DNA of 64,000 bases from Planctomycetota bacterium (lineage in GTDB: Bacteria; Planctomycetota; UBA8742; UBA2392), in contig JADLAK010000012.1 in assembly GCA_020848275.1 (NCBI GenBank), positions 37,301-101,300 on the forward strand, written 5' to 3'. Shown here piece after piece: positions 3,751-43,532 of this stretch. Numbering within the stretch: position 1 is the stretch's first letter; every line of letters starts with the position of its first letter. The position numbers were made by a program, and so were the translations under genes. The notes under the pieces were generated by a model, which was not told the DNA's origin, made no database searches, and saw only the letters and a list, made by a program, of their open reading frames with translations.

Positions 3751-3767
3751 CCAGACACTGGAGCAGA

Positions 3768-12212: not shown

Positions 12213-12254
12213 TATCTGACAAACGGCCAAATACGCAGTGCCGCCAGAAGTCGT

Positions 12255-14639: not shown

Positions 14640-14684
14640 GGCTCACACGCGGCTCGGAATGCGCTTTGTCGGGTCACAATCATA

Positions 14685-28212: not shown

Positions 28213-30243
28213 GTGAGCCTGCGATACAAGGCGCTTGTTGCGGTGTTGGCCCTCGTCGCCATGGTGACGGGCGGCCTTGGTTTCTACGTCAGCAACCTCT
28301 ACCGCGACTCTGAACGCGCGCGCATCCGCCGCGACCTCAAACGCGACGCGGACCAGCTTAACGCCGAGCTCGATACCTTCGCGCGCGTTACCGCCGCGAC
28401 GTTGAAAAATTCGGCGCGCTCCAGCGAAGTTGTGCGCCTGCTTGCCGATACCAGCATCGACCTGAAGCAGAATTTCGACCCGCTGGTTGCGGCGTGGCGC
28501 GTCCCGGCCAAAGCCGACGTCGCACTGACGACCGTGAACAGCTTCATCGCCGAGGACCGCAAGGCCAAGGTGATCCACAAGTATGGCGACCTTTCGGTGA
28601 TCGCCTTTGACGCGCCTGGCAAAGCCTTTGACGGCCGCCGCGAGACGTTGATGGCCGACGCCGCACTCGGGGCGTTCTTGAAGCGCTGCTACGCCCATGC
28701 CGAGGAAAAACCCAACGAGGAAGAGTCCCGGTCTTCGGTGATCGCGATTGCCGACTCGTGTTTTCTCGCCGTCGCCAGCCCTTTGTTCGAAAGCCTGCAA
28801 AACCACGAAGTCGCGGGCGTGGGCTGCGTGCTGATCGAGCTGTCCTCAAGCTGGGCGGTGCAGAACCACATGGGCGAAGGCAAGTTGGAGGCTGAGGACA
28901 ACGCCGTCCGCCAGCTTATCTACATTGCCGACCGGCTGACCGCCGAAACTCTCGGCAGCAAAGACGCCGCCGCAAAGGCGCTGGATGCGGCGCTGAAGTC
29001 CAGCGGCGAATTCGAAGTCATGCTGGAAGTCCACGGCCATCCTTCGGCTTACGTCGGTCGGTTGAATCCTTTTGTGCTGGCCGAAGACGGCCCGGGCGGC
29101 AAGCCGGCGTTCATCGCGCTGAAAAACCTCGACCGCGAGCTTGAGCCGCTTGCGGCGTTGCAGCGCAACGTGGGCCTGGGCGGACTTGCGCTGGGAGTCC
29201 TGGGCGCGGCGGTCGCCTATGCCGGCGCGTACATGGTCATCCGCAAGCTGCGCCGCCTGCAGGACGCGACACTCAAGGTGCGACAGGGCAACTTTAATAC
29301 GCGCATCCGCTTCAAGGGCCGCGACGAGCTCGGCTCGCTGGCGACAGCGTTCAACGACATGACCACGGGATTGAAGGCGCTGGGCGTGTACACAGACGAT
29401 GCGCTGGCCAAGAAGCTGATCGACGGGCCGGACCAGCTCGCCAGCGCGGGCCGCCGCGAGGAAGGCAGCATCCTGTTTTGCGACATCAAGGGCTTTACGC
29501 CGATCGCGGAAAAACTCGGCGCCGAGGACCTCGTGAACCAGCTCAACGAGCACTTCACGGTGATGGGCAAACACATCAAGGACAGCAAGGGTTACCTCGA
29601 CAAATTCATCGGCGACGCCGTGATGGCTTATTGGGGCCCGCCGTTTTTCCCGGACAAGGATTTCGCCAAGCGCGCCTGCAAGGCCGCGCTGCTGAGCCTG
29701 CGCGCCGAGGCCGAGTTGCGGCGTAAATGGCGCGAACAGGGCAAGCCCGAGTTTTTCCTGCGTATCGGCATCGGCACCGGCGACATCGTGATCGGCAACC
29801 TGGGCAGTGACACCAAGAAAAACTTCACCGTGATCGGCGACAGCGTGAACCTCGCCAGCCGGCTGGAGGGCGCCAACAAGTTTTATGGCACAGAAACCCT
29901 CGTGGACGAGCGCACCGCGGAACTCGCGGGCTCCGAGTTCTTGCTGCGCGAAGTCGACCAGATCCGCGTGACCGGCAAACAGGTTGCCGTGCGCGTTTAC
30001 GAAATGATGGGAGTTGCCGCGGAGACGAGTTCGTCGGCGCTGCCGCGCTGCATCGGTTACGGCAAGGCGCTGAAGCTGTACCGCAACCGTGAGTTCGCCG
30101 CGGCTGCCGAACAATTGAAGGCATTGCTGGCGCGCGAGCCCGCGGACGGGCCCGCGAAGTGGCTGCTGGGCGTGTGCGAGAAATTCATGGTCCATCCACC
30201 CGATGCGGACTGGGACGGCGTGACGATCGCAACCGAGAAATAA
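28213..30243 (+). CDS. Membrane-bound class III adenylate/guanylate cyclase with periplasmic sensor region and HAMP domain.
   Basis: N-terminal TM. Second TM followed by HAMP (QGNFNTRIRFKGRDELGSLATAFNDMTTGLKA). Cyclase homology domain (ILFCDIKGFTPIAEKLG...FIGDAVMAYWGPP...GIGTGDIVIGNLGS...TVIGDSVNLASRLEG). Confidence 0.8.
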   Translation: MSLRYKALVAVLALVAMVTGGLGFYVSNLYRDSERARIRRDLKRDADQLNAELDTFARVTAATLKNSARSSEVVRLLADTSIDLKQNFDPLVAAWRVPAKADVALTTVNSFIAEDRKAKVIHKYGDLSVIAFDAPGKAFDGRRETLMADAALGAFLKRCYAHAEEKPNEEESRSSVIAIADSCFLAVASPLFESLQNHEVAGVGCVLIELSSSWAVQNHMGEGKLEAEDNAVRQLIYIADRLTAETLGSKDAAAKALDAALKSSGEFEVMLEVHGHPSAYVGRLNPFVLAEDGPGGKPAFIALKNLDRELEPLAALQRNVGLGGLALGVLGAAVAYAGAYMVIRKLRRLQDATLKVRQGNFNTRIRFKGRDELGSLATAFNDMTTGLKALGVYTDDALAKKLIDGPDQLASAGRREEGSILFCDIKGFTPIAEKLGAEDLVNQLNEHFTVMGKHIKDSKGYLDKFIGDAVMAYWGPPFFPDKDFAKRACKAALLSLRAEAELRRKWREQGKPEFFLRIGIGTGDIVIGNLGSDTKKNFTVIGDSVNLASRLEGANKFYGTETLVDERTAELAGSEFLLREVDQIRVTGKQVAVRVYEMMGVAAETSSSALPRCIGYGKALKLYRNREFAAAAEQLKALLAREPADGPAKWLLGVCEKFMVHPPDADWDGVTIATEK

Positions 30244-30315
30244 GCCAGATGCCGCTGCGGCAGCGGCGGGTGTTGTTAAAAACACCCATCGCTTCCGCAA
30301 GGGGCTCTGGTTTTC

Positions 30316-31029
30316 TTAATCGGCGTATTTCGGCCAACTGGTGATGTCGTCGCCGCGGCCGTAGTCATTTTTCTTGTTCGGGCCGAAGCTCCAGATCACG
30401 TAACCGACGGGATAGCTTCCCGTGGTCGGGTGGTGCAGCATCTCGGCACACTTGTTCGGGTCGAGTTCGACGGTGCTGCCGTCCTGCAACTGGATGACGT
30501 CCTCGACGATGCCGTTGCGCACGTCGTTGATGTCCAGATAGATGTACGGCGTGCCCCAGGGATCGACCAGTTCGAAGAACGCCTGCGCGCCGTCAAGGTC
30601 GAGTTTGTCGTCCGCAAAAGTGTCGCCGTCGTAGTTGGTGCGGACGGTGTCGTCCATGAACAACTGGTTGTCGAGGTAGGGCCCGCCCTTGACGCGCGCG
30701 CGCAGCGCAACCACCAGCGCTTCAATGCCGCGATTGACGCGGTTTTGCTCGGCTATCGTCGGCGAGTTCGCCAATACGCCAAGCCGCCCGGCGTCACCAG
30801 GCGGGTAAACCGCCCAGCGCGTTTGCCAACTGTCGACATTGGCCTGCAGGCCGCGGATGACGGCTTCGCACTTGGCTTTGTCACTCTTGCTGATCGCCGG
30901 GATAATCGCGACGACAAGGATGCCCGCCAGCAGCGCGATAATCGCGATCACCACCATGATCTCGATCAGGGTAAAACCGCCTGAGCGCGGAGAACGGAGT
31001 GAGGAGAGCGGAGTAGTTTTGTCAGCCAT
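30316..31029 (-). CDS. Prepilin-type N-terminal cleavage/methylation domain protein (type II secretion/type IV pilus pseudopilin-like).
   Basis: GFTLIEIMVVIAIIALLAGIL class III signal peptide motif. The ORF may start upstream at 31086. Confidence 0.8.
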   Translation of the reverse strand: MADKTTPLSSLRSPRSGGFTLIEIMVVIAIIALLAGILVVAIIPAISKSDKAKCEAVIRGLQANVDSWQTRWAVYPPGDAGRLGVLANSPTIAEQNRVNRGIEALVVALRARVKGGPYLDNQLFMDDTVRTNYDGDTFADDKLDLDGAQAFFELVDPWGTPYIYLDINDVRNGIVEDVIQLQDGSTVELDPNKCAEMLHHPTTGSYPVGYVIWSFGPNKKNDYGRGDDITSWPKYAD

Positions 31030-31072
31030 ACGATTCTCTGTTCCAGCCCTAGCCCTAAAACCAACCCTGCCG

Positions 31073-34024
31073 CTACCCGCCCTCAATGTTGTTCAGGTTG
31101 CTGTCGAACACGAACTCGGCCCGTTCCACCTGCACCGAGCCCTTGACGCCCGTCAGCGCGCGCGCGAAGAAGCCGCAATCGAGCGCGATGCCCTCGGAAT
31201 CAAGGTCGGCGTTGTTCAGCACGTCCTGGTCGGCAATGAGCAGCACTACCTGCGCGCCGTTGATGATCGCGACCATTTCAAAGGCGCTGCCCTCTTTGTT
31301 GGCCCGCCGGCGCAGGCCCAGCGTCAGCCGTTCGGTCGCGCCGATGGGCCCGTTGTACGCCGCAATGTCCACCAAACCGCCCTCAATGAATTTCTCGGGC
31401 TGCGCCTCGTTGTCGAGCTGGAACTTGCGGACCTCCCAATAAATGCGGCCCGCCGGGTCGACGCCCAGCATGATGGTGCTTTCCGGCGCCCAGCCAGCCA
31501 CGCCGGTGTTATTGGACAGCCGCGTCAGGTGGATGCCGCGGTGGAAGCCCGCGTCGCCGCGCGCAACGAACTCGGCCTTGAAAGTGCTCAGGGTCGAATG
31601 CTTCTTGCGCACGGCGAGGCGCGAGATGGCCTTGCCGTCGCGCTGGTCGACGCCCAGCACAAGTTTGCCGCCGACGATTTTGGTGGCGTCGCGGAAGCCG
31701 ACGTCGGGCTTGGGCGGTTTGCGGATTTCCCAGACGCCGTAGTAGTCGGGCGTGCTGTCCTGGGCGAATTCCTCGCGCTCGACGCGCTGGCGTTCGTTTT
31801 CGCGAATCGCGCGCAGCCAGTCGCGCGCATAGGCCAGCGCGAGCGACGTGCGGTAATCCGAGAGGCTCGCCGGGTCGGCGAAGTACGCCATTGCGTCGGA
31901 GCCCGCGATGATCGCCACATGCTCTTCAAGCGCGCGGCGCGCGGCGCCGTAATCGCCCAGGGAATAGTTCGCAAAGGCGTTGACGTTCAGGCATTCCGGC
32001 GAGGGCGCGAGCGCGATTTGTTCGGGCGTACGCGTGCGCCCCGCGCCCTGCGAGGCGAAATCTTTAAGCGCGCGTATCAGCGTGTTCGAGATATCACGGG
32101 CGCGGGACAGGTAGGTGCGCCGGACCTCCAGCGCGTCGGCGCGCACGGCAATGGTCGCCGGGGCAAGGTCCGCAAGCTGGATATAGAGATTGGCCACGGC
32201 AAGCTGCACGCGCGGCTGCTGGGGCTGGATTTCCAGCGCGGCGGTAAAGAACGCGGCGGCTTCCTTGAGGCGCGGCACCAGCTCGGCGGCGATATCGACG
32301 GATTCGCCCGACGCGCGGCGCGCCAGCAGGTCGCCACGAAGCTTGTCGGCTTCGAGCACCGAAATTTCAGCCAGCATTACCAGCGCGGGGTGGAAGCGCG
32401 GGGCGAATTTGATGCAGCGCGTGAGGTGGTCCTTGGCGACGGCAAGCACGCCCGCCTTGAATTGCAGGTCGGCGATGGCGTAGTTGAGGCGTTCGTCGCG
32501 GGGGTTGACCTCGAGCCCGCGGGCAAAGGTCGCCAATGCCGCCGGGAAGTTGCCCAGGTTGCGCCGCAGGCGGCCCTCGGCCAGGTAGGGCTCGGCCGAA
32601 AGCGGGTCAACGGCCTTGGCGGCCTCGAGCATCGCCAGCGATTGCTGGTTGGCCTCGGGCGGCGTCTGGCCCGCGGGCACGACCATGCGGAACTGCTGGT
32701 CGCATTGCACGTAGATCACCAGCGCGCGCGCCATCAGCGGGTTGAGTTCGTAAACCACCGAGCCCCCGGGCTGGCTGCTGGCCGCGGCGAGCTTCTTGGC
32801 GGTGTTCATCACGGTCAGAGGTTCAAGGCGTTCGCGGGCCTTCTGCGGGTCGTCGGCCTCGCCGCGATGCAGCAGCATGGCGGCAAACAGCACCTGGCCG
32901 TTTTCGTAGAACTTGCTGGTATTCGGGATCTTGTTGAGCGTCGTGAGCGCCGCGGGAAAATTGCGCTGCGTGAAGTGCGTCTCGGCCAGGAGCAAATAGG
33001 CGCGCGCGATGTCCTCGGCCTTGGCGCCGGCGAATTCAGGAAACGGCGGGTCGGTGTCGGCGGCGGTGGACTCAAGGGCCGAAATCAGCGCCGTGAGGTC
33101 GGTTTTAGCCTCGTCGTAACGTTTGAGCTCAACCAGGCAGTAGGCGTGGAGGTAGCGCGCCTCGCCGTAAACCTCGGCCAGCTTGAGGTATTTTAAGGCC
33201 TCGCGGTGGAGCGACAGGCGCTTGACGTAGGCGCGGCCGATGCGCAGCGAAAAATCCTCGCGCTTGGGGCTGGCGACGCCGTTGTCGAGCGCGTCAAGGT
33301 AGACCGACAACTCGGCATCGAGGTTGTTGCGCGCGCTGTGGTAATTGGCCAGCGTCTCGTAAATCTCGGGGTTGGTGGGGTCCTTGTCGCGCACATAGAC
33401 GAACTGCGACTGGTAGAACTCGGCGAAGTCGTTGCGTTCCTCGGCGGAAAAGCCGTCCTTGGTTTCGCTCAGGTTGGCGATCAGTTCGCGGTGGGTTTCT
33501 TCCCAGCGAATCACGCCCTGGCGGCGCAGGTCGCCTTCCAGTTGCGAGACGTATTTGTTGTAGATGTCGACCCAGGTCTGGGGGTAGCCCTTGATGGTCA
33601 CTTTGTTCGCGGCCACGCGCAGGATGCGCCCGCGCGCCCCGGGGGGCGTGATGTCTTCAATCAGTTGTGACAGCGGCTGGCGCGGCTTGTAGGGCGTGAA
33701 CTCGAAGAACGCTCCATCGGCCTCGGGCGCCTTGCCCAAAAACTTGTCAAAGTTCTCGCGCCACTTGTCGGTGCGGTAACGTTTGGCCAGGCCCGTGCGC
33801 TGCCAGCGTTCGGTCGACAACTTCAGGTCGTTGGTGCGGTCGGCCACCAGGCGGCCCGCCTTGCGGATGGCCACGGGCAGGACTTCCCAGTCGCTGGTGG
33901 CGTCCTCAACGCGGATGATCAAGTTGCCACGCGGGACCTCGGCCATCGGGTCGGGCAGCGTGGCCTGCGCGGCAAGCGGCGTCGCGAGAGCGAAAACCAG
34001 GAGGATGAAGACGGTGCGTGCCAT
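31073..34024 (-). CDS. Large secreted TPR-repeat protein (983 aa).
   Basis: Signal peptide (MARTVFILLVFALATPLAAQA). Multiple TPR-like helical repeats. The start overlaps the stop of the upstream small gene (TAATG). Confidence 0.65.
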   Translation of the reverse strand: MARTVFILLVFALATPLAAQATLPDPMAEVPRGNLIIRVEDATSDWEVLPVAIRKAGRLVADRTNDLKLSTERWQRTGLAKRYRTDKWRENFDKFLGKAPEADGAFFEFTPYKPRQPLSQLIEDITPPGARGRILRVAANKVTIKGYPQTWVDIYNKYVSQLEGDLRRQGVIRWEETHRELIANLSETKDGFSAEERNDFAEFYQSQFVYVRDKDPTNPEIYETLANYHSARNNLDAELSVYLDALDNGVASPKREDFSLRIGRAYVKRLSLHREALKYLKLAEVYGEARYLHAYCLVELKRYDEAKTDLTALISALESTAADTDPPFPEFAGAKAEDIARAYLLLAETHFTQRNFPAALTTLNKIPNTSKFYENGQVLFAAMLLHRGEADDPQKARERLEPLTVMNTAKKLAAASSQPGGSVVYELNPLMARALVIYVQCDQQFRMVVPAGQTPPEANQQSLAMLEAAKAVDPLSAEPYLAEGRLRRNLGNFPAALATFARGLEVNPRDERLNYAIADLQFKAGVLAVAKDHLTRCIKFAPRFHPALVMLAEISVLEADKLRGDLLARRASGESVDIAAELVPRLKEAAAFFTAALEIQPQQPRVQLAVANLYIQLADLAPATIAVRADALEVRRTYLSRARDISNTLIRALKDFASQGAGRTRTPEQIALAPSPECLNVNAFANYSLGDYGAARRALEEHVAIIAGSDAMAYFADPASLSDYRTSLALAYARDWLRAIRENERQRVEREEFAQDSTPDYYGVWEIRKPPKPDVGFRDATKIVGGKLVLGVDQRDGKAISRLAVRKKHSTLSTFKAEFVARGDAGFHRGIHLTRLSNNTGVAGWAPESTIMLGVDPAGRIYWEVRKFQLDNEAQPEKFIEGGLVDIAAYNGPIGATERLTLGLRRRANKEGSAFEMVAIINGAQVVLLIADQDVLNNADLDSEGIALDCGFFARALTGVKGSVQVERAEFVFDSNLNNIEGG

Positions 34025-34530
34025 TATTTGTCCCCGTCCTTGAATTCGTTGGTCTCGGTGTGCGTGAGGATCACCTTGCGCTTGTCGCGGGGCACATAAC
34101 CGATGACGCGTTCGGGCTCGGGCGATGCGCCCGCGGGAATGTCGAAGTCGTTGAGCTGCGGGAAGCCGGGGAAGCCAAGCAGCAAGGGCGGCAGCTTCTC
34201 GAACGTCTCGGCGCCCAGTTGCCAGGCCGAACCCTTGGCCGGCTCGTAGACGCTGCGGTCGTGGAAAAACAGCGCGCTGACCTTGGCGTCGGGCACTTCC
34301 TTGATGGGCTGATTTTCAACCTCGCCGATCTGCTTGATGAGGCGGCCGGCTTCTTCGCTGGTAAGGCCCGCGGCGCTGGTGGTCTTGGCCTTGATTTCTT
34401 CGTCAATACGCGCGAGGTTGGCGCCGCCAAGGGGCGCCTGCATGACGACCAGCAGGATGACCAGCACAACAAAGCCGAACAGCAGCTTTTCTTTGTGTTC
34501 AGCCAGCTTGGCGAGGATGATTTCACCCAT
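34024..34530 (-). CDS. Small single-pass membrane protein (168 aa), hypothetical.
   Basis: TM helix FGFVVLVILLVVM. Located between the PilO-like and TPR genes in the same orientation. Confidence 0.45.
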   Translation of the reverse strand: MGEIILAKLAEHKEKLLFGFVVLVILLVVMQAPLGGANLARIDEEIKAKTTSAAGLTSEEAGRLIKQIGEVENQPIKEVPDAKVSALFFHDRSVYEPAKGSAWQLGAETFEKLPPLLLGFPGFPQLNDFDIPAGASPEPERVIGYVPRDKRKVILTHTETNEFKDGDK

Positions 34531-34553
34531 AAATTGCCTTCAATCCGTGCTGC

Positions 34554-35495
34554 TTACCTGAACTTGCGCGGTTGGCCCGCCTGGTTGTCTTCCCTGCTGG
34601 TCTTCACGCTGCCCGGCAACGGCGCTTCCTCGTTGATGGAGTAAGCCACCACCGTGATCTCGGCGTTAAGCATGTCGTCGCTGGGCGAAAGCACGTCGGG
34701 CTTGCTGAGGCTCATGCCCTCGACGGCAAAGAAACGGTTGCGCGTGTCGCCCTTGAGCGGCCGTTGCAGGTCGATCAGGAAGTTGTAGATCGCCTCCTCG
34801 GCGCCGCGCACGGAGATTTTCAGCATCCGCGGCTTGAGGTAGGGCGGATAGTCGGCCTTGTTGGCGTCTTTGCCCGCGCTTTGGACGGGCAGCCCTCGCG
34901 CGGACAAGTCCTGCTTGGCCTTGGCGTCGATGAACTCGAGTTTGCGCAGCGACGGGATGCCGACACGCTGCGTCGACGCCGCAACCACGCGCACCATGTC
35001 AAGGCGCGCGAGATAATCTGCGATCTGGTCGCGGTCCATCTTGTCGACGGCGCGGGCGGTGAAGCCCAGGGCGTTGCTGTCGGTGGTCGCGATCGTCACG
35101 TTGGGCTGATAACTCAGGTCGCGCAGGAGTTCCTGGCGCTTTTTCTGGTAGTAGGCGACCATGTCCTCGACCGTCGCCTCGGGCGGCAGCGACGCCAGCG
35201 TGTACTGGCTTTCCGTCTCCCAGCGCAATTGCGCGTTGCGGCGTTTTTCGATTTCCTGTACTTGCACGGTCTGCGCCGCAATCGTCACGCCCTGGCTGGT
35301 TGCGGGACGGCCTTCGTACTTCTTGGAGTCGTCGAACAAGAGGCGATAGTGCGCCGCCATGCGGCCCTGCACCGACTTCTGCACCGTGCCCACAGCCTGG
35401 CCCTTGGCGCCGACTTCGTTGTAGCCGATGACCAGCAGCGTCCCGAGCACGACCAGCGTCGCAATGAACCGCCAATGTTTTTTCAGCACGTTCAT
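34554..35495 (-). CDS. PilO/GspM-like inner-membrane pilus or secretion-assembly component (313 aa).
   Basis: N-terminal TM (WRFIATLVVLGTLLVIG) and a periplasmic domain. 4-nt overlap with the upstream PilM/N gene. Assignment is by context. Confidence 0.4.
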   Translation of the reverse strand: MNVLKKHWRFIATLVVLGTLLVIGYNEVGAKGQAVGTVQKSVQGRMAAHYRLLFDDSKKYEGRPATSQGVTIAAQTVQVQEIEKRRNAQLRWETESQYTLASLPPEATVEDMVAYYQKKRQELLRDLSYQPNVTIATTDSNALGFTARAVDKMDRDQIADYLARLDMVRVVAASTQRVGIPSLRKLEFIDAKAKQDLSARGLPVQSAGKDANKADYPPYLKPRMLKISVRGAEEAIYNFLIDLQRPLKGDTRNRFFAVEGMSLSKPDVLSPSDDMLNAEITVVAYSINEEAPLPGSVKTSREDNQAGQPRKFR

Positions 35496-37162
35496 GGCCT
35501 GAACTCCCTCTCGAGCTTCAGCTTGATCGTGAATTCGATGTCGACGCCCGCGACCTGCGAGTTCTCCTTGGCTTCGCCGTGCACGACCTCCAGCACGCCC
35601 GGCATGTCCTTGATCAGCTTGCGCAGGTCAGGAATCACGTTCAGCGGGTCGGCGTTGCCGGTCTTCTGGATGAACAGCCTGAGCTTAAGCTCTGGCGGCG
35701 GCGGCAGTATCTTCGGGTCGTCGTTGTCCTTGCCTTCTTTCTTGGGATGTTTCAGGTCGGCGCTGTAGATGCGCACGGAATCCGGCCGCGTCGCCGAAAT
35801 TTCCATCAGCAGCCGCGTCGCAAGGTTGCCCGGCGCCGTCGCATACATCGAGGCGTCGGCCTTGCGCCGGGCCATGGTCAGCGCCTCCATGCGGCCGGGT
35901 ATCTGGTTGCTTGCGCCCTGGTAGCGGCCGACGATGCCCTGGTAGTTGCGCGAGTTGGCGTTGGCCTCGTCGGCGGCCTTGCGCGACAGCAGGAACACCG
36001 GCAGCAACACCGCCAGCACCAGCGCCGCCGCCATGTAAAGGAAGAGGCTCTTGTTCATGAACTCGCGGCGCCTGCGCACCGACGAGGGCAAAAACACGAT
36101 CTTGGGCGCATTGGCGTCAGCGCCGATTTTCGCCAACCCCATCGCCAGTGTCAGCGCGGGTCGGTAGTTCTCGACCGTCTGCTTGGCTTTTTCGTCGAGG
36201 TTGGCGAGGTCGACATCGTTGAGCGGGTTGAAAACTTCGACCGTCTTGCGCAGACGGTGCATCATCAGTTCGCGCAGGCCGGGAATGGCCGCGCCCGGGC
36301 CGCAGATCATAACGCGCGAAGCGTCAAGTTTCGGGTCGCTGTGCGCGCCCTTGGCCAGCATGATCACACTGTTAATCTGCTGGAAGAGTCGGCCCGCGGC
36401 CTCCTGCCCGCCCTCAACGCCGCGGTCGGACGCAATGTTGTCGGCGGCCACGCTGGGGCGCAGGTCGAGGTCGCGGAACAGCCGCGCGCGCACCTGGTCG
36501 CGTTCACCGCCGTATTCCGGCAGCAGGCGGTCGACGAAATCACGCACGCCGACCGAAAGCGTGCGCGCAAAAATCAACGAGCCTTCTTTCACGATGATGA
36601 CGTCGGTGACGTCATCGCCGATGTTGGCGACCAACAGCGTGCCCTCGTAGCTGACGTCGCCCGCGATCTGGTAGGCGTTGTAAAGCGCCGCGCAACCCGG
36701 CACGAGCGTAGTGAACGGGATGCCCGCCGCACGCAGGCTGTTGGCGTAGTGGTCGACAATGGCGTCGCGCGCCAGGCCAATGATGGCCGCGGGCTGGCCG
36801 TCAGGTGCGGCGCCGAGCATGTAATCGCCAAGGATGCCGCCCTGGCCGCCGCCGATTTCGTCGGCTTCGAGGCGCACCAGCGGTGCAATCGTCTTGGGGT
36901 TGGGGCTGCCGACGACCACGACGCGGTAGACGATGTCGCGGCCGGGAATGAGCGTGACGGGTTTGCCCGCGCGGAAGCCTTGCGAGCCAAGCGTTTGCCA
37001 GCTTGTGCCGATGGCGGCTTTCTGGTTGGTCTCGGGTTTTTCTTCGGTCCCGGGCGAAAAGCCCGGCAGCACCGCGACGTTGCGCAGTGCATAGCCCGCT
37101 CCCTTGCGGTCCAGTTGGACCAGCAATGAGAGCGCCGAAGAAATGTCGAGACCGTAGCTCAT
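35492..37162 (-). CDS. Fusion of a PilM-like actin-fold ATPase domain with a TM segment and a PilN-like C-terminal domain.
   Basis: N-terminal PilM/competence-A like blocks (LVANIGDDVTDVIIVKEGSLIFARTLSVG...). TM LFLYMAAALVLAVLLPVFLL at about residue 375, followed by a periplasmic tail. Confidence 0.6.
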   Translation of the reverse strand: MSYGLDISSALSLLVQLDRKGAGYALRNVAVLPGFSPGTEEKPETNQKAAIGTSWQTLGSQGFRAGKPVTLIPGRDIVYRVVVVGSPNPKTIAPLVRLEADEIGGGQGGILGDYMLGAAPDGQPAAIIGLARDAIVDHYANSLRAAGIPFTTLVPGCAALYNAYQIAGDVSYEGTLLVANIGDDVTDVIIVKEGSLIFARTLSVGVRDFVDRLLPEYGGERDQVRARLFRDLDLRPSVAADNIASDRGVEGGQEAAGRLFQQINSVIMLAKGAHSDPKLDASRVMICGPGAAIPGLRELMMHRLRKTVEVFNPLNDVDLANLDEKAKQTVENYRPALTLAMGLAKIGADANAPKIVFLPSSVRRRREFMNKSLFLYMAAALVLAVLLPVFLLSRKAADEANANSRNYQGIVGRYQGASNQIPGRMEALTMARRKADASMYATAPGNLATRLLMEISATRPDSVRIYSADLKHPKKEGKDNDDPKILPPPPELKLRLFIQKTGNADPLNVIPDLRKLIKDMPGVLEVVHGEAKENSQVAGVDIEFTIKLKLEREFRP

Positions 37163-37241
37163 AGGTTCGTGTCGCGTGTTACGCGCGTCGCGTGTCAGGC
37201 CTTTGACTCGGGACCCGTGACGCGAGACGCGCGACGATTGC

Positions 37242-40232
37242 CTAATCCGTCCTCAACTTCTTGATGCGCTGGAACAATGCTTCTTCGCGGCTCATCCACG
37301 AGCCCGCGTCGTCGGTGTCAATCTTCAACCCGCGCAGCCACATGATCTCGTCGTTGCTGAGCAGGTTGCGCAGCAGTTTCGACTCGACCAGGTCGAGATA
37401 ACCGAAAGCCTTTGCCCGCTGGGTCTTGGCGATGTGGGCAAGGCCCTGGTCGGCGTGCTTCTTTGCCTCGGCGATCAGGGCCGCGGCTTCCAGCACCATC
37501 AGTTCCTTGGCCTCGATGCCGCGCAGGCAGCGCGGGTAATTCTCGACCACAAACGCGAGTTTCAACCGGCCCTGCGTGGGCAGCCCGCTTGAGAGGTAGT
37601 CGCGCGCACTGACCAGGAACAACTCGCTGTCGCGCTGTTCGATTGAAATCGCAAGCAGGAAGCGTGCCTTGCGCGCCGCCGTCGCGAGGATTTCAAAATC
37701 GCGCGACGACTGGCGCAGGCTGGCGATCGCCGCCGTGGCCAGCGCCGACGCCTGCTGCGTGCGCGCGCTCATGTTGATGCCATTGAGGTACTGGATTGGC
37801 CCCGCGAGCGCTTCGTCCCACGCCGCGCCCTGCTTCTTCAGGCGGTCGCTGGTGCGGATGCATTCGTCCATCGCTGCAATGTACAGGCTTTCGTTGCGGG
37901 TAAGCTCCGGCACGTTGATGCCGTCGTTGAGTTCGATCTGGCGCAGTTTGTAGTGGATCGACGCGCTGTCGATGGCTTGCGCCGCAATCGCAATTTCATT
38001 TTGATTGAACGGAAATTCCTTCATGATGCTGACCGCGCGCATGACGCGGTCAACTTGATCCTCGCCGGGCAGCACGCCGGAGACCTGCGACGTCAACTCC
38101 GCCAGGCGGTCGCGCCCGCCGCCAAGGCTGAAGGTCACGTTGAGCGCGCCAAGGCCCTGCACAAAAATGTCGCGGCCCGCCGGCGCCGTGGCCACGCTGA
38201 TCGTCGGCGAACCCTCGCCGCCCTCAATGCGGTTGCCCAGGCCGGTGTCGGCCGACAGCAGCGTCGTCAGGCGCTGGCGCTGCGCACTGCCCACGCCGAT
38301 TTCGTTGCGGTATTCCTGCACCGAGATGCCGTCCAGCCGCACAATTTCAGTGGGGATGAACAGCGGCGTTGCGCTGCCGTTGGCGCCCACATAGATGCGG
38401 CCCTCACCCGGCCCCGGCGCCACCTGCAGCGCGCTGCCGATGGTGACAACGGATCCCGCCGCGCCAAGGCGCAGGCGCAGGTCCGTCGGGTGTTCCGTCA
38501 CCGGGTCGAAGAAGTTGATGCTGAAGTCGAGGCTGCCCGGCGCGGCCTTCACTTGCGGCGGCCCGGTCAGGAAATCCATCACGCTCAGCGGGTCCTCCGC
38601 GCCCTCGCGCCGGTGCAGGACAAGCTGGCAGCGGCGCACGAGCGGCGCGTCGCCAAAATTGGCAGTGAAGGTGCCGTCGCCGTGGAATTCCCAGTTCAGG
38701 TCCGAATCGGCGGATTTGGTCGTGGCCGGCGTAATCAACGGCTTGGCGTTGGCGTCTTCGTCAACAGCGAGGTCGTCGTACACCACGCTGCCGCCTTTGC
38801 CGGAAATGCCAAGCGCAATGCGGTAGCCCTTGGCCCCGGCCGGTGTGCCCGACGAGCCCTCAAGCAGCGTCCAGTCCTTCATGCCGGCCTTGAGCACGAC
38901 GGGGGTAATCACCAGTGCGTTGCTGTCGCGCGCGTCGGCATACCACAGCACCGAAACCACCGCTGCGCCTGTGCGGTTGGCGGACATTTCGCTGTTGACG
39001 GCATAAACGCTGACCTTGATGCCGCCCTTGGGAGCGTCCTTCATGGGCCCGACCATGAAGCTGATGCTGTTTTGCGCCGAGAAACGCGACAACTGCATGG
39101 CGTATTGGCCGCCGTGGCTGGCCTCGGTCACGCTGGCCTGGTCGCCCCCGCGCACGTCCCAGCCCCAGCCTTCGGGCAGGCCCGCGGCGTCGAGCGTATC
39201 AAAGGACGGGTTGTCCTTGTCGGCCAGCCCGCCCGGGCGCGCAGGGCGCGTGTTGTTCCCGGCGCCGGCGTCATCGCTGCGCTTGTCGGCCATCACGGTC
39301 ATGGCGGCATAAAGCACGCCGCCCGCCAGCGCGAGCACGAGCAGAATTTCGATGGCGGCAATCAGCGCGCCGCCGCCGCCGCTGTTCTTGACGTTCTGCG
39401 TCAGCGTGGCGTGGTCGGCGACCTTGCTTTCGGCGGCGGCGTCCCGCGCAATCGCCGCTTCTTCGTCCATCGCCTGGGCGAGCTTTTCGCCGCGCTCGAC
39501 GGGTTTGACCGAAGCGTTGGGATCAATGGGCCGGGCCGCGGCGATATCCTTGACCGACATCGGCACGGAGTTGCCGCTGCTTTCGGATTCCTTGCCGGCC
39601 ACCATGAACTGGAAAGTGTGGTTGCCGATGATGATCAACTGGCCGATTTTCAGCAGTGCGGGCTCAGTGATGCGGTGGCCATTCACGGCAACGCCGTTGG
39701 TGCTGCCAAGGTCCTCAAGGACGTAGCCGTCGGCCTTTTTGCTGATGCGCGCGTGGTGGCCCGAGACCTTGGTGTCGTCAGTCAGCACCAGCGCGTTGCC
39801 GTCCTTGCGGCCGATGTTGAAGACATCGCCGAGGATGGGGATGATGCGTTCCTTCAGGTTGCCCTTGATTTGCACCAGCGCCGCGGGCGCAACCACCGTG
39901 CGGGTGCTGGATGCGCTGTCAGCGCCCCCAAAGCCGCTGTCGTCGATGGTCATGTCGACGGCGCCGATGGTCACGAGGTCGCCGGGGGCCAGCACGGCGT
40001 CCTGCACACGCTTGCCGTTGACAAACGTCCCGTTCTGGCTGCCGAGGTCGACGACGGCCCACTTGCCGTCGCGGGGCTCAAAGCGGCAGTGGGCGCGTGA
40101 AAGGCGATTGTCCTTGATGGCGATGTTGGCCTGGTCCGCAGAGCGCCCAACGACGACCGGGCCCGCTAATTCAACGGGAGAGTTCTCGCCCTTTTTGAAG
40201 ACCAGCTTGGGCATCAGTGTGTGCACCCGCAC
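37242..40232 (-). CDS. Protein of 996 aa with two N-terminal FHA domains, one TM segment, and a large periplasmic/extracellular region.
   Basis: FHA1 (VVGRSADQANIAIKDNRLSRAHCRF...GSQNGTFVNGKRV). FHA2 (FNIGRKDGNALVLTDDTKVSGHHARI...GSTNGVAVNG). TM ALIAAIEILLVLALAGGVLYAA. Confidence 0.75.
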   Translation of the reverse strand: MRVHTLMPKLVFKKGENSPVELAGPVVVGRSADQANIAIKDNRLSRAHCRFEPRDGKWAVVDLGSQNGTFVNGKRVQDAVLAPGDLVTIGAVDMTIDDSGFGGADSASSTRTVVAPAALVQIKGNLKERIIPILGDVFNIGRKDGNALVLTDDTKVSGHHARISKKADGYVLEDLGSTNGVAVNGHRITEPALLKIGQLIIIGNHTFQFMVAGKESESSGNSVPMSVKDIAAARPIDPNASVKPVERGEKLAQAMDEEAAIARDAAAESKVADHATLTQNVKNSGGGGALIAAIEILLVLALAGGVLYAAMTVMADKRSDDAGAGNNTRPARPGGLADKDNPSFDTLDAAGLPEGWGWDVRGGDQASVTEASHGGQYAMQLSRFSAQNSISFMVGPMKDAPKGGIKVSVYAVNSEMSANRTGAAVVSVLWYADARDSNALVITPVVLKAGMKDWTLLEGSSGTPAGAKGYRIALGISGKGGSVVYDDLAVDEDANAKPLITPATTKSADSDLNWEFHGDGTFTANFGDAPLVRRCQLVLHRREGAEDPLSVMDFLTGPPQVKAAPGSLDFSINFFDPVTEHPTDLRLRLGAAGSVVTIGSALQVAPGPGEGRIYVGANGSATPLFIPTEIVRLDGISVQEYRNEIGVGSAQRQRLTTLLSADTGLGNRIEGGEGSPTISVATAPAGRDIFVQGLGALNVTFSLGGGRDRLAELTSQVSGVLPGEDQVDRVMRAVSIMKEFPFNQNEIAIAAQAIDSASIHYKLRQIELNDGINVPELTRNESLYIAAMDECIRTSDRLKKQGAAWDEALAGPIQYLNGINMSARTQQASALATAAIASLRQSSRDFEILATAARKARFLLAISIEQRDSELFLVSARDYLSSGLPTQGRLKLAFVVENYPRCLRGIEAKELMVLEAAALIAEAKKHADQGLAHIAKTQRAKAFGYLDLVESKLLRNLLSNDEIMWLRGLKIDTDDAGSWMSREEALFQRIKKLRTD

Positions 40233-41081: not shown

Positions 41082-41156
41082 TGGCCCGTAGTGTAATTGG
41101 TAACACAACAGATTCTGGATCTGTTTTTCTTGGTTCGAGTCCAAGAGGGCCAGCCA
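41082..41156 (+). tRNA. tRNA-Gln (anticodon CTG), 75 nt, CCA encoded.
   Basis: Manual fold. U1-A72 pair and G73 discriminator (Gln identity elements). D-arm GUGU/ACAC. Anticodon stem ACAGA/UCUGU with loop UUCUGGA. T-arm CUUGG-UUCGAGU-CCAAG. One G7.A66 mismatch. Confidence 0.75.
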
Positions 41157-41194
41157 ACTTCAGTGAAAGCCCGAATGTGCCGGGCCGTCATTGA

Positions 41195-41233
41195 GCCCGC
41201 CGTCACCAGAACGGCGGGTTTTGCATTTGTTTT
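41195..41233 (+). terminator. Rho-independent terminator after tRNA-Gln.
   Basis: GCCCGCCGT-cacca-ga-ACGGCGGG followed by TTTTGCATTTGTTTT. Confidence 0.6.
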
Positions 41234-41306
41234 CCCGACGCGTGACAGAAGCGCGCATATCTGGCAACATTCGCCGATTCAAACGGGCCCGGATCGAGTC
41301 GAGACC

Positions 41307-42362
41307 ATGATGAAAAAGCGAATCTTCGCGGAGTTTGCGTTGTTGGGCGTGATTGCGGCGGTATGCCTTGTCATAGCCTGGCCTGAAGCGGCGGGCGTCA
41401 ACAAGGTCGCCGGCGACAATGTCATTGCCGATCCCAAGGATCCCAAGGCTTCACAGGCGCCCGCCGTTGCGCGCACGGCCTATGTCGACTTCGTGAAGTT
41501 GCTCAAGAACGACCCGCTGTTCCTGACGGCGCAACTGAAGGAGATGCATAAGCTCGAGATCGATATGCGCGAGGAGGCCACGACCTTCGACGCCAAACAC
41601 GCCAATGACAAGAAACGCCTTGAGGCCATCAAGCCCGACGAGATGGAATATCGCGACCTGATGAAGGACATCATCGAAAGCAGCGCGAAATCCAACCGCA
41701 AACGCATGACGTTGGAGTCCGAGGCCCAGCGCACAATAGACGAGGAAGCCCAGAAGGCCTTCAAGCGCATCAAGGACCTCGTGGCCGAAATATCAAAGAC
41801 CAAGGGTTATAGCCAGGTCATGCTGATCTCGAGCACGCCCGCCAAGGGCCTCAAGTTCGACGAACTGCAAAAGCAACTGCTGCTAAGCCCGATGTTGATT
41901 TACCCGGAAGAGGACGACATCACCAAGTTCGTCGAGAAGGAAAACTTCCGCCGCAGTTACGGTTATCTTGAAATCGGCGACTCCACGGCCAAGGAAGGCA
42001 CGATCGAGAATGACGGCGTCTGGACGGAAGATGACAAGGGCAATAAGACGCAGCGCGCCGCCAAAGATAAGGTCAATAACGCCGCGGACGTCTGGTTTGA
42101 GTGCAAAGTCGGCGCCAGGTTGTCGCTCAAGTGCGCCGTGACGGACCTCGACGAAAACGACAAGCGCGTGCCCGCCAAACCCGCCAACGCCGAGGTCGAA
42201 TGGACGCTCATCAGGCTGCAGACCGGCACCCTCGACGAAAAAACCGGCGTCTACACGGCGCCCGACGCGATGCCCGCCGCCGGCGACATCGTCTCCATAA
42301 GAGTCAGTTGCAAGAAGGCCCCCTACAAGAACACGACCATCCGTGTGCGGCTGATCAAGTAG
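41307..42362 (+). CDS. OmpH/Skp-like periplasmic chaperone domain with a C-terminal extension of about 150 aa.
   Basis: Signal/TM (FALLGVIAAVCLVIAWP). Coiled-coil Skp-like region rich in K/E. Directly upstream of lpxD, the conserved skp-lpxD arrangement. Confidence 0.55.
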   Translation: MMKKRIFAEFALLGVIAAVCLVIAWPEAAGVNKVAGDNVIADPKDPKASQAPAVARTAYVDFVKLLKNDPLFLTAQLKEMHKLEIDMREEATTFDAKHANDKKRLEAIKPDEMEYRDLMKDIIESSAKSNRKRMTLESEAQRTIDEEAQKAFKRIKDLVAEISKTKGYSQVMLISSTPAKGLKFDELQKQLLLSPMLIYPEEDDITKFVEKENFRRSYGYLEIGDSTAKEGTIENDGVWTEDDKGNKTQRAAKDKVNNAADVWFECKVGARLSLKCAVTDLDENDKRVPAKPANAEVEWTLIRLQTGTLDEKTGVYTAPDAMPAAGDIVSIRVSCKKAPYKNTTIRVRLIK

Positions 42363-42458
42363 TCATCCAGGGCCCGCCGCCTCGGCGTCGGGATGGAACC
42401 AAAATACCGGCACTCCATCCCTCGCTCACGCGGGGGCTTTGTTTTTTACGGAGCAACC

Positions 42459-43532
42459 ATGAAAGCGGCACAACTGGCGCAAATTTGCGGCTGCAAGCTT
42501 GAAGGCAACGGCGACGTCGAGATTTCCAACGTCGCGCTGATTGACAAGGCGACCCCTGCCGACGTCGCGTTTGCAGGCGCGCCCGAATACGTCGCGATGC
42601 TCGATAAATCCAAGGCCGGCGCGGTGCTGGTCAAAGCCGGCGTCAAAACGCCCGAGGGCATGACCGTGCTGCGCGCCGACGACCCGGACGTCGCGTTCTC
42701 CAAGGCGATTGCGGCGCTGCGACCGGCGGCGGTCCATCCCGGCCCCGGCATTTCCGACAAAGCCGCAATTGGCAAGAATTTCAGCGCGGCCGAAGGCGTC
42801 AGCGTCGGCGCGTTCGCGAGCATCGGCAATAACGTCAAGCTCGGCAAAGGCGTGATCGTTTATCCCAACGTATTTATTGGCGACGATGTGGAAATCGGCG
42901 ACGGGACGATCATTTATCCCAACGTGACGGTGCTGTACCGCTGTCGTGTCGGCAAGAAGTGCATCCTGTGGCCGGGCGCGGTGATCGGCCGTGACGGTTT
43001 CGGTTTTCACTTCGTGGCGGGTCACTTCGAGGGTGCGCCGCAACGCGGCACCGTGGTACTGGAAGATTACGTCGAGATCGGCGCGAACACGACCGTCGAC
43101 CGCGCGCGCTTTGACGTCACGCTGGTGCGCAACGGCGCCAAGATCGACAACCTGGTGCAGGTCGCGCACAACTGCGTGGTCGGCCAGCACTGCGCGATTG
43201 CGGGCCACGTGGGCCTGTCGGGCAGCGTGACCTTGAAAGATTACGTGGTGCTTGGCGGCGGCGTCGGCATCGCCGACCACATTACCGTGGGCATGGGCGC
43301 CAAAGTTGCGGCGAAGTCGGGCATCATGCGCGACATTCCGCCTGGCACGAGGTGGGCGGGCTATCCCGCCGACGAAGGCCGCGCGTACATGAAACGCGAC
43401 GCGCTTTCGCGCCGCCTGCCTGAAACGATGGAGCGCATCCGCGCGCTCGAAAAGCAGGTCGCCGAACTTCGCGCGCTGGCCGGCAAGACGAGCCAGGCCG
43501 AAAGTGACGAAGCCGACCGCAACGCCGAGTAA
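42459..43532 (+). CDS. lpxD: UDP-3-O-(3-hydroxyacyl)glucosamine N-acyltransferase LpxD.
   Basis: Left-handed beta-helix hexapeptide repeats and LpxD N-terminal domain ([40 protein letters not shown]...). Confidence 0.85.

Follow-up and report, generated by a model that had tools for sequence, protein, structure and literature searches.

A run of six genes on the minus strand of a 64,000-nucleotide stretch of planctomycetal DNA (the window, that is, the whole stretch analyzed) raises the question of whether they encode part of a filament machine and, if so, of which kind. An earlier note, made from the letters of the sequence, had proposed a noncanonical type IV filament or secretion module. 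We estimate a probability of about 0.6 that the products of the six genes make up a membrane-anchored subcomplex for assembly and alignment in a divergent type IV filament machine (T4P/T2SS kind), with its motor encoded elsewhere, and that only uncultured Planctomycetota MAGs carry it.

Six genes in one conserved operon

The genes, here called g6 to g1 in operon order, run in one direction between positions 30316 and 40214, and all six open reading frames were found at the coordinates previously given for them. Their GC3 values (0.77 to 0.86) are of the coding type. The overlapping and abutting boundaries described earlier were likewise confirmed, with an ATGA overlap between g5 and g4 at 35492-35495 and a TAATG common to g3 and g2 at 34024; the remaining gaps measure 79 nt (g6/g5), 23 nt (g4/g3), and ∼43 nt (g2/g1). 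The set g6-g5-g4-g3-g2-g1 is one translationally coupled operon. Its end likely falls in the convergent intergenic region of 72 nt (30244..30315, no strand) that stretches from the g1 stop codon to that of a cyclase gene and that contains GC-rich hairpins, with terminator-like matches at 30250-30269 and 30291-30305. The promoter/terminator scan gave no more matches than shuffled sequence did.

All six genes have the same order and orientation in loci L001 to L020 (labels of this analysis), with protein identities of 32 to 58%, and two truncated contigs are consistent with this arrangement. Scattering of the genes in related genomes, which the earlier note had named as an outcome that would count against it, was thus looked for, and strict synteny was found instead. 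More than 20 species-level Planctomycetota MAGs retain the six-gene order while the flanking genes differ, any one flanking gene family being common to at most eight of the related loci compared. This arrangement is far beyond chance. The g5/g4 overlap, either ATGA or 1 nt, is present in almost every locus, and even in the most distant subgroup, where g4 is ∼23% identical, the g5-g4-g3-g2 order is intact. In remoter variant loci, a PilM fusion and a g4-like gene occur together with an FHA protein, a TPR protein, and two pilins, the second of which is of the LamG type; a fusion of g3 to the TPR protein in variants L023 to L025 was considered and had no hmmsearch support. In a scan of genome contigs, the carriers of the module were uncultured Planctomycetota MAGs only.

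The topology of the products is also consistent across the operon: a hydropathy scan gave g6, g5, g4, and g3 a single membrane helix each, in a bitopic N-in/C-out arrangement, and g2 has a signal peptide.

A PilM-type fusion protein and a partner with a predicted PilO-like fold

The g5 product (556 amino acids [aa]; 35492..37162, minus strand) comprises a PilM-like actin-fold domain (aa 3 to 345), a membrane helix (around aa 368 to 398), and a periplasmic C-terminal domain (aa 399 to 556). Its PilM domain was recognized by Pfam PilM_2 (42 bits; cutoff, 27) and, over aa 3 to 344, by TIGR01175 (pilM) at 2e-18, although at 66 bits this match lies under the cutoff of 133. Among PDB sequences, it matches PilM of Myxococcus xanthus at 2.6e-14, as well as PilM of Pseudomonas aeruginosa and of Thermus thermophilus. 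The NCBIfam model NF045709 (Amuc_1101_fam) matches aa 282 to 456, a stretch that takes in the membrane helix together with the juxtamembrane region, with 68 bits (E value of 5.9e-19), and the equivalog cutoff of 650 bits is not reached. All 21 members of the g5 family examined match both NF045709 and TIGR01175, each under the cutoff. By these profile scores, g5 is homologous to the Amuc_1101 family without being an equivalog. FtsA signals were weak (Pfam FtsA at 0.0036 for g5; TIGR01174 ftsA in 2 of the 21 family members), with the PilM scores of the family far above them.

The earlier reading of g5 as a PilM::PilN fusion holds for its PilM part, through both HMMs and the sequences of solved PilM structures. 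For the PilN part, no sequence link was found: the C-terminal domain showed no Pfam or profile similarity to PilN or GspL, and a profile-profile comparison for PilN/PilO paralogy between the g5 C terminus and g4 gave no signal. We infer its PilN-like identity, including the fold, only from the architecture, in which a membrane helix is followed by a periplasmic C-terminal domain. What is clear is that g5 is a PilM-type protein in which a membrane helix connects the actin-fold domain to a periplasmic one, an architecture like that of GspL and Amuc_1101.

The next gene, g4 (34554..35495, minus strand), encodes a bitopic protein of 313 aa that has no sequence family by Pfam, NCBIfam, or a profile search of PDB sequences and that is rare, with 23 relatives among 1.84 billion representative proteins. 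Its AlphaFold model (pLDDT of 83.5) has an N-terminal membrane helix, long helices, and an alpha-beta-beta-alpha-beta-beta domain at aa 155 to 287; a PRxFR motif is conserved near the C terminus. The top 10 Foldseek matches of this model are all Amuc_1100 (6LAD, 6KNY, and 6LAF; E values of 1.7e-7 to 4e-6), with a TM score of 0.56 to 0.65 per target at 11 to 14% identity and no sequence similarity. PilO follows (3JC8_Oa at 8e-5 and 2RJZ at 3e-3), and GspM is absent from the best 50 structural matches. The model therefore predicts an Amuc_1100/PilO fold for g4, so that the previous label of PilO/GspM-like stands on its PilO side. Remote-homology searches, which might have shown the PilM/N and PilO assignments to be wrong, were run and failed to do so. 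Taken as a PilM/PilN/PilO (GspL/GspM) subcomplex, the pair offers a PilM domain by sequence, a PilO fold by predicted structure, and a PilN equivalent by architecture.

A GspG-like pseudopilin and the proteins at the PilP and PilQ positions

For the last gene, g1 (30316..31029, minus strand), the most likely start codon is the ATG at 31029, giving 237 aa, rather than the TTG at 31086. The class III signal peptide reads GG|FTLIE, with G|FTLIE at 30961-30978, and N_methyl (7.7e-8) and TIGR02532 (1e-5) both score above their cutoffs. A prepilin-motif pseudopilin had been proposed here; the motif was confirmed, and only the start codon had to be moved. Several matches point to GspG: TIGR01710 (gspG) at 1.2e-12, albeit with 48 bits under a cutoff of 88.85; a g1 profile whose N-terminal helix finds type IV pilins and GspG among PDB sequences; and a tblastn match to E. 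coli GspG (39% identity over 75 aa; E value of 3e-8). Relative to GspG, the alignment shows an insertion of ∼90 aa, and the protein contains the motifs DPWG.P..Y and WSFG....G.GDDITSW. No Amuc_1102 chain was among the PDB sequence matches of the g1 profile. We conclude that g1 is a predicted prepilin-type, GspG-like pseudopilin, and the operon always includes a prepilin-type pseudopilin.

Between g4 and g1 lie two genes at the positions of pilP and pilQ. The first, g3 (168 aa; 34024..34530, minus strand), occupies the gene position of PilP/GspC and encodes a bitopic, proline-rich protein. Its single membrane helix agrees with the small membrane protein described earlier. It has no lipobox cysteine and no Pfam or NCBIfam family, and it carries conserved motifs (LPP...PGF..L.D(F/Y)D.P.G..P...VPRD.R.V.L) and is retained in the most distant subgroup. 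The second, g2 (31073..34024, minus strand), occupies the position of PilQ and is, as reported before, a secreted TPR protein of 983 aa, with TPR repeats recognized by Pfam and a signal-peptide-like N terminus. The signal peptide is followed by an N-terminal domain, a TPR array (around aa 210 to 630), and a beta-rich C-terminal domain (around aa 760 to 983). Most of g2 had no homologues in Pfam, NCBIfam, or PDB-sequence searches, and a profile of the C-terminal ∼284 aa matched neither a secretin nor any other PDB sequence. The idea that g2 is a cryptic secretin is unsupported, as Pfam, this C-terminal profile, and tblastn with E. coli GspD were all negative.

A double-FHA membrane protein leads the operon

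The first gene, g6 (37242..40214, minus strand), encodes a bitopic protein with orthologues P0054 to P0095 and an AlphaFold model with a pLDDT of 84.4. It had been described as a transmembrane protein of 996 aa with two FHA domains. The domains and the helix are present, and the length is corrected to 990 aa: the start is most likely Met7 at 40214, as in all orthologues and in the NCBI protein P0081, the alternative being a GTG at 40232. Two cytoplasmic FHA domains are followed by a disordered linker, one membrane helix (aa 283 to 309; 39288..39368, minus strand; found by the hydropathy scan and as a helix in the model), and a periplasmic region of ∼680 aa.

Pfam finds FHA in two stretches (1.1e-36; 125.6 bits against a cutoff of 20.7), and the orthologue alignment and AlphaFold delimit FHA1 at aa 1 to 92 (39939..40214, minus strand) and FHA2 at aa 110 to 205 (39600..39887, minus strand). 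Across 36 orthologues, G23 R24, S39, H42, and N61 G62 of FHA1 are invariant, as are G135 R136, H154, and N173 G174 of FHA2, with S151 nearly so. The invariant motif (S/A)T-R-T-V-V-A-P-A-A-L precedes FHA2. Structural matches of the FHA part by Foldseek are GarA, OdhI, and FhaA, at TM scores of 0.8 to 0.9. Both domains are canonical, with the phosphothreonine-binding residues (GR, SxxH, and NG) intact, and are predicted phosphothreonine readers. The protein also matches Pfam Yop-YscD_cpl (3.6e-28) and TIGR03354 TagH (2.4e-18), and FhaB/FipA is the best-scoring family for the FHA region, in a match confined to the FHA domain. A joint profile of g6, g4, and g3, meant to recover the three families at once, returned long FHA proteins only.

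On the periplasmic side, aa 340 to 490 (38745..39197, minus strand) form a beta-sandwich with a fold like that of a carbohydrate-binding module (CBM), whose Foldseek matches are CBM22, CBM61, CBM11, and phage tailspike CBM domains (E values of ∼5e-5 to 2e-4). A second beta domain (aa 495 to 697) and an all-helical C-terminal domain (aa 700 to 990) follow (37245..38732, minus strand; pLDDT mostly >90); for aa 495 to 990 there was no Pfam match and no informative structural match in the PDB.

Absent machine parts and neighboring genes

Within the 64-kb window, Pfam searches of all large ORFs and tblastn with E. coli GspC, -D, -E, -F, and -O agreed that there is no assembly ATPase, platform protein, prepilin peptidase, or secretin, in line with the previous report that extension ATPase, platform, and secretin are missing. 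In 25 related loci, the same four components were also missing up to 10 kb from the module, and the machine as seen is therefore incomplete. E. coli GspL, GspM, and GspC gave no tblastn match; GspD, -E, -F, -H, -I, -J, and -K and the core genes of T3SS, T6SS, and Tad were not found near the module. The claim that the genes match no canonical T4aP, Tad, or T2SS operon holds, with PilP, PilQ, and GspC, -D, -E, and -F all absent. Judged by its sequences, the module cannot be placed cleanly in T4aP or T2SS. Since no motor gene lies near the module, a motor acting in trans is purely our inference.

The cyclase gene noted beside the module (28213-30243, plus strand) is indeed there, with HAMP, Guanylate_cyc, and TPR matches in Pfam and an orientation convergent with g1. 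As a partner of the module it did not hold up, because this neighbor is not conserved; the adenylate cyclase is an unrelated neighbor. The housekeeping envelope genes lpxD and lpxC-fabZ also lie near the module in the window and are not conserved in the other loci.

Alternative explanations

An ordinary type IVa pilus (T4aP) would look similar if the operon were a diverged equivalent of pilMNOPQ in which PilP and PilQ have become unrecognizable, the remaining T4aP genes lying elsewhere in the genome. In sequence, g5 comes closest to T4aP PilM proteins, g4 matches the PilO of T4aP machines, and the order of the module parallels pilM-N-O-P-Q, which in model organisms usually lies apart from pilBCD and pilA. 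We nevertheless consider this explanation unlikely, as it does not account for g2, in which Pfam, GspD tblastn, and a comparison of the C-terminal ∼284-aa profile with PDB sequences all failed to show a secretin signal. Moreover, g3 differs from PilP in having a membrane helix and no lipobox cysteine, PilM is fused to the domain at the PilN position, the pilin of the operon is GspG-like and no T4a major pilin, the operon is led by a conserved double-FHA protein of ∼1,000 aa, and the g4 family numbers just 23 representatives in 1.84 billion proteins.

The six genes might also make no filament but an envelope scaffold of actin-like (FtsA/PilM-fold), FHA, and TPR proteins for division, budding, or wall synthesis in the FtsZ-less planctomycetes. 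The weak FtsA matches (Pfam, 0.0036; TIGR01174, 2 of 21), the nearby lpxD and lpxC-fabZ, and the best family match of the FHA region, FhaB/FipA, which we take to be a mycobacterial division-associated protein, would fit such a scaffold. This is improbable, however, given that PilM scores greatly exceed FtsA scores and 21 of 21 members match pilM and Amuc_1101_fam, that a prepilin-type pseudopilin is constant in the operon and g4 has a PilO/Amuc_1100 fold by its model, and that the lpx neighbors are not conserved and the FhaB match is limited to the FHA domain. A core function in division fits poorly because the module is rare and, in the genome contig scan, was retrieved from uncultured MAGs only and not phylum-wide. 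Finally, the six genes could cooperate with the HAMP adenylate cyclase as a cAMP-linked sensory unit, in the manner of the FimV/FimL/CyaB pathway, which links pili and cAMP in Pseudomonas. The cyclase is convergent with g1 at a distance of 72 nt, and 4 of ∼20 other loci have a class III cyclase-domain gene no more than 10 kb from the module; among representative flank ORFs, two were of this kind. The four genes, however, are 24 to 28% identical in the catalytic domain and lie at differing positions on either side of the module, and no orthologue of this cyclase adjoins the module in other loci, where flanking families are common to eight loci at most; the convergent orientation also precludes cotranscription of the cyclase with g1. 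The missing synteny largely refutes this explanation, to which we assign very little probability.

Proposed mechanism and significance

If the six genes do form the assembly subcomplex of a filament machine, g5 and g4 would pair via their membrane/coiled-coil helices and periplasmic alpha/beta domains into an inner-membrane ring. The cytoplasmic PilM domain of g5 would dock a GspE/PilB-type ATPase and a GspF/PilC platform, both encoded elsewhere in the genome, which would polymerize peptidase-processed g1 into a periplasmic or surface filament. The g3 protein may take the connector role of PilP/GspC, and g2 may take the outer role of the TPR-secretin Amuc_1098. Spanning the inner membrane, g6 would use its FHA domains to sense threonines phosphorylated by a Hanks-type kinase, the gene for which lies elsewhere, and would gate or nucleate assembly, while its periplasmic CBM-like and helical domains could contact the wall, glycan, or g2. 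The filament machine is probably gated by Ser/Thr phosphorylation.

We tentatively raise the further idea, doubtful as it is, that the module might be the planctomycetal counterpart of the Akkermansia MUL2 cluster: an FHA-gated pseudopilus machine that captures polysaccharides or macromolecules into an enlarged periplasm via glycan-binding-type domains. Those domains would be the beta domain of g2, the CBM-like sandwich of g6, and, in the variant loci, the second pilin of the LamG type. If so, the module would open the long-discussed uptake of macromolecules by Planctomycetes to genetic study and would make the Amuc_1100 family an ancient, PVC-wide PilO-type machine part.

As for the assembly subcomplex itself, it adds a second PVC phylum to the range of the Amuc_1100/Amuc_1101 pili-like module, which has so far been studied because it affects the human host, and this extension supports Amuc_1100 as a PilO-type machine part as opposed to a stand-alone surface protein. 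The rare, strictly conserved set includes three large proteins of obscure mechanism (FHA-membrane-CBM-helical, TPR/beta-sandwich, and proline-rich connector) and is now usable for searches, complex modeling, and genome profiling. If the machine is secretin free and controlled by phosphorylation, it would represent an unusual way for a cell with an atypical envelope to build or use a type IV filament.

Comparison with known systems

With the T2SS set GspL-GspM-GspC plus GspG, the module shares the GspL architecture of g5 (cytoplasmic actin-like domain, membrane helix, and periplasmic domain), the anchoring of g3 by a membrane helix as in GspC, and the resemblance of g1 to GspG. It differs in that Pfam and NCBIfam gave no GspL or GspC family match and no significant GspM match, and the g5 sequence is nearer to PilM. 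With T4aP PilM-PilN-PilO-PilP-PilQ of Myxococcus, Pseudomonas, and Thermus, it has in common homology over the full PilM domain, the PilO-like fold of the g4 model, bitopic N-in/C-out partners, the gene order, and the separation from motor genes. In contrast to T4aP, the module fuses PilM to the domain at the PilN position, which lacks a PilN sequence signal, has no detected PilP lipoprotein or PilQ secretin, and adds FHA and TPR/beta-sandwich proteins and a GspG-like pseudopilin inside the operon.

One or two cytoplasmic FHA domains on an envelope machine component are also found in the Tad-like Kil machine of Myxococcus, in T6SS (Fha1/TagH), and in T3SS (YscD/PrgH/CdsD), although the similarity of g6 to these is confined to the FHA domains, and its periplasmic part has no match to the T3SS periplasmic ring domain. 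No open-access paper that we found combines FHA with PilM, PilN, and PilO; the FHA proteins that accompany Kil provide a precedent among type IV filaments (PMC8460266).

The closest described relative, which the earlier note did not mention, is the Akkermansia Amuc_1098-1102/MUL2 cluster, a pili-like cluster (PMC4960237, PMC5332112) that is required for mucin acquisition and whose Amuc_1100 is PilO/PilN-like (bioRxiv 10.64898/2025.12.30.696933; PMC13174399). The differences are considerable: g5 scores far under the Amuc_1101_fam cutoff (68 versus 650 bits), g4 is only 11 to 14% identical to Amuc_1100 with no sequence-level match, g2 has TPRs and no detected secretin whereas Amuc_1098 is a TPR and secretin PilQ protein (PMC4960237), the module pilin is GspG-like while Amuc_1102 is described as archaeal-pilin-like (PMC13174399), and the leading double-FHA protein has no MUL2 counterpart. 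Both clusters encode a PilM-type protein that carries a membrane helix as well as a C-terminal extension (g5 and Amuc_1101), a bitopic protein of ∼315 aa with an Amuc_1100 fold (predicted for g4, by structural match only), then a small hypothetical protein and a large TPR envelope protein, and also a pilin-type gene. The order g5-g4-g3-g2 parallels Amuc_1101-1100-1099-1098 as read from published gene annotations (PMC5332112, PMC4960237, PMC13174399), and the hosts of both belong to the PVC superphylum. The six-gene module is a distant cousin of the Akkermansia cluster.

Operon structure and conservation

The six minus-strand ORFs, numbered g6 to g1 in operon order (double-FHA protein, PilM fusion, g4, g3, TPR protein and pilin), span 30316-40232 of the window, with coding-type GC3 values of 0.77 to 0.86 and a window GC content of 62%. 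The junctions agree with those described in the earlier note: g5 and g4 overlap by ATGA at 35492-35495 (-), and g3 and g2 have a TAATG in common at 34024 (-). The remaining intergenic gaps are 79, 23 and about 43 nt. All six predicted ORFs were recovered, but two starts need correction: g6 most likely begins at Met7 (40214; 990 aa), in agreement with the NCBI protein and every orthologue, and g1 most likely at the ATG at 31029 (237 aa). The stretch that separates the g1 stop from that of the convergent HAMP adenylate cyclase gene (28213-30243, plus strand) contains GC-rich hairpins. A PSCyt1 "planctomycete cytochrome C" domain is encoded nearby.

Scanning the g5 family profile against one genome per GTDB species yielded 25 loci, every one of them in a MAG of uncultured Planctomycetota; their gene order was determined by tblastn with every window protein. 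Twenty of these (L001-L020) have the FHA, PilM fusion, g4, g3, TPR and pilin genes in this order on the same strand, with protein identities of 32 to 58% across syntenic loci, and two truncated contigs agree. The g5/g4 start-stop overlap is preserved in almost all loci. When all ORFs in the loci were clustered, the six genes were the only shared set, and no flanking family occurred in more than 8 loci. Because the order is kept in related loci while the flanks vary, the six-gene arrangement is a selected operon and not the product of chance.

A subgroup with g4 proteins only ∼23% identical keeps the g5-g4-g3-g2 order. A PilM fusion, a TPR protein and a pilin also occur in a remoter variant (L023-25; PilM domain 27% identical), along with a membrane protein bearing a single FHA domain, a g4-like gene and a second, LamG-type pilin. 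The latter (∼345 aa; L024 15845-16897, L023 11848-12885 and L025 15585-16619) combines a prepilin motif with a Laminin_G_3/ConA-like domain and resembles a modular pilin whose head is of the lectin type.

As the earlier note had reported for the ATPase, platform protein and secretin, we found no GspE/PilB, GspF/PilC, prepilin peptidase or secretin in the 64-kb window, nor within 10 kb of the module in 25/25 loci. No Ser/Thr kinase was found in the flanks within 10 kb of the module in the 25 loci.

Domain architecture of the six proteins

The two FHA domains proposed for g6 are recognized by Pfam (1.1e-36), and their binding-loop residues GR, SxxH and NG are invariant in 36 orthologues, with Ser151 of FHA2 nearly so. 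The AlphaFold model (pLDDT 84.4) places FHA1 at aa 1-92, FHA2 at aa 110-205, a disordered linker at aa 205-283, a membrane helix at aa 283-309, a beta-sandwich at aa 340-490, a second beta domain at aa 495-697 and a helical domain at aa 700-990. In Foldseek searches against the PDB, the FHA domains matched GarA, OdhI, FhaA, Chlamydia CT664 and a T3SS FHA, and the sandwich matched CBM22, CBM61, CBM11 and phage tailspike CBMs; the last two domains had no PDB match. A low-confidence linker directly before FHA2 (aa 101-109; window about 39888-39915) carries (S/A)T-R-T-V-V-A-P with both threonines invariant, and a near-invariant SSGx(T/S)AP motif follows FHA2 (aa 213-219; about 39555-39576). Either could serve the FHA domains as a phospho-acceptor or self-binding site. 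A homologue search with a g6+g4+g3 profile also returned two unrelated proteins, P0102 and P0145, that join FHA to type IV filament parts, one to T2SSG (1195 aa) and the other to the N-terminal domain of T2SSE, so that fusions of FHA with TFF components are not confined to this module.

The PilM half of the proposed PilM::PilN fusion is well founded: g5 aa 3-345 matches TIGR01175 (2e-18), Pfam PilM_2 above cutoff, and the solved PilM sequences of Myxococcus xanthus (2.6e-14), Pseudomonas aeruginosa and Thermus thermophilus. An RRRR-flanked membrane helix and a periplasmic domain of ∼160 aa follow. For the PilN half, this architecture is the support; the C-terminal domain itself gave no PilN or GspL signal and has no profile similarity to g4. 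Read from the alignment rather than computed, its pattern appears to be alpha-beta-beta-alpha-beta-beta. All 21 g5 family members match both pilM and the NCBIfam model "Amuc_1101 family PilM-like pilus complex protein," in each case with scores well short of the curated cutoffs, the latter match covering the membrane helix and juxtamembrane region (aa 282-456).

No sequence method assigned g4 to a family, and a search of 1.84 billion representative proteins found only 23 relatives. Modeled by AlphaFold from a 20-sequence alignment (pLDDT 83.5), g4 combines a membrane helix and long helices with an alpha-beta-beta-alpha-beta-beta domain. The best ten Foldseek matches in the PDB were all Akkermansia muciniphila Amuc_1100 (6LAD, 6KNY and 6LAF; E = 1.7e-7 to 4e-6; TM per target, 0.56 to 0.65), followed by PilO of M. 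xanthus (3JC8 chain Oa; 8e-5) and P. aeruginosa (2RJZ and 5UVR). Because the model matches these structures, the "PilO-like" call made from raw sequence is borne out by predicted structure. A conserved basic PRxFR at the extreme C terminus (34554-34575), its last Arg nearly invariant, persists in the most distant subgroup as well.

The bitopic, proline-rich g3 protein (168 aa) has conserved C-terminal motifs and no family match. As expected for a secreted TPR protein, g2 has a signal peptide and a TPR array, followed by a C-terminal beta domain; no secretin was detected by Pfam, by a profile of the C-terminal ∼284 aa against PDB sequences or with E. coli GspD. The pseudopilin assignment of g1 likewise holds, with a canonical G|FTLIE prepilin motif, an N-terminal helix homologous to type IV pilins and GspG, and GspG-type DPWG.P..Y and WSFG...GDDITSW motifs flanking a ∼90-aa insertion.

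Other features of the window

A tRNA-Gln (CTG; 41082-41156, +) overlaps the predicted TTG start of a 421-aa ORF without a Pfam match (41097-42362), whose real start must lie further downstream. A low-GC segment (12001-14767; 0.50 versus about 0.62) encoding a 794-aa protein with a weak HSDR_N match terminates at a tRNA-Leu (14684-14767) and may be an integrated island. An Rfam Acido-Lenti-1 sRNA match (15750-15793, +; 49 bits versus a gathering score of 37) has a 178-aa ORF on one side and the PEPCK gene on the other. At 3528-8215 (+), a DUF2169 protein with pentapeptide repeats precedes a 708-aa protein consisting almost entirely of such repeats; DUF2169 proteins are often T6SS associated, and no T6SS core genes were seen in the window. 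We read a McsA-like (UVR motif) and McsB-like (ATP:guanido phosphotransferase) pair (24177-25864, +), together with a ClpB/ClpC-type AAA fragment at the window edge (25-1050, +), as an arginine-phosphorylation protein quality-control system. A single 433-aa protein (47987-49288, +) fuses an LpxC domain to a FabZ-type (FabA-like) domain, with lpxD upstream (42393-43532). An AAA_5 (McrB-like) 585-aa protein and the 343-aa ORF that comes after it, with a 4-nt overlap (55150-57935, -) may form a McrBC-type restriction pair.

Proposed function and alternatives

The earlier observation is confirmed, and its interpretation as a filament or secretion module is supported. The analysis shows the domains of the six proteins, their membrane topologies, the operon organization and its conservation. 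As for the mechanism, we consider it reasonably probable (about 0.6) that the six genes encode a PilMN/PilO-type inner-membrane assembly machine that is FHA coupled, with the ATPase and other parts elsewhere. In such a machine, g5 and g4 would form the inner-membrane ring, and an ATPase, platform protein and peptidase encoded elsewhere would drive polymerization of g1. The g3 and g2 proteins may replace the PilP/GspC connector and outer component, the g6 FHA domains could couple assembly to threonine phosphorylation, and its periplasmic CBM-like domain might contact glycan or wall.

We regard three alternatives as less likely. The g5-g4-g3-g2 series parallels the classical pilM/N-O-P-Q order, as an ordinary but diverged pilMNOPQ operon would; the conserved set also includes g6. 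A nonfilament division or envelope scaffold sits poorly with a prepilin-type pseudopilin, g1, as a constant part of the operon. A cyclase-coupled unit is suggested by the cyclase gene, which is indeed adjacent in the window but, like the MoCF and lpx genes, is not a conserved neighbor in related loci.

The cluster links Amuc_1100 to a broader PilO-type family and contributes three large unexplained components; its significance is tempered by the diversity expected in the superfamily, the unseen motor and the lack of a cultured host.

Comparison with known systems

Among the open-access papers searched, none mentions FHA together with PilM, PilN and PilO, and Denise et al., in the main text of their TFF survey, refer to neither Planctomycetes nor Verrucomicrobia. 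The Myxococcus Kil Tad-like system already provides an example of FHA proteins attached to a type IV filament machine, and a phosphorylation cascade set off by contact is suspected there (PMC8460266). Of the systems described so far, the Akkermansia Amuc_1098-1102 cluster, now called MUL2, comes closest. It comprises a PilQ with TPRs and a secretin domain (Amuc_1098), a hypothetical protein (1099), the PilO/PilN-like Amuc_1100, a PilM-like protein (1101) and a pilin-like one (1102); abundant in the cell envelope, it has been implicated in acquiring mucin (PMC4960237, PMC5332112, PMC13174399, bioRxiv 10.64898/2025.12.30.696933). By our reading of the published annotations, g5-g4-g3-g2 parallels 1101-1100-1099-1098. 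Unlike MUL2, however, the planctomycete module has a g2 without a detectable secretin domain, a GspG-like rather than Amuc_1102-like pilin and a leading double-FHA protein, and the divergence is so large that no curated family cutoff is reached. Within the PVC pili-like (MUL2-type) branch of type IV filament machinery, the cluster is a variant that is both new and strictly conserved.
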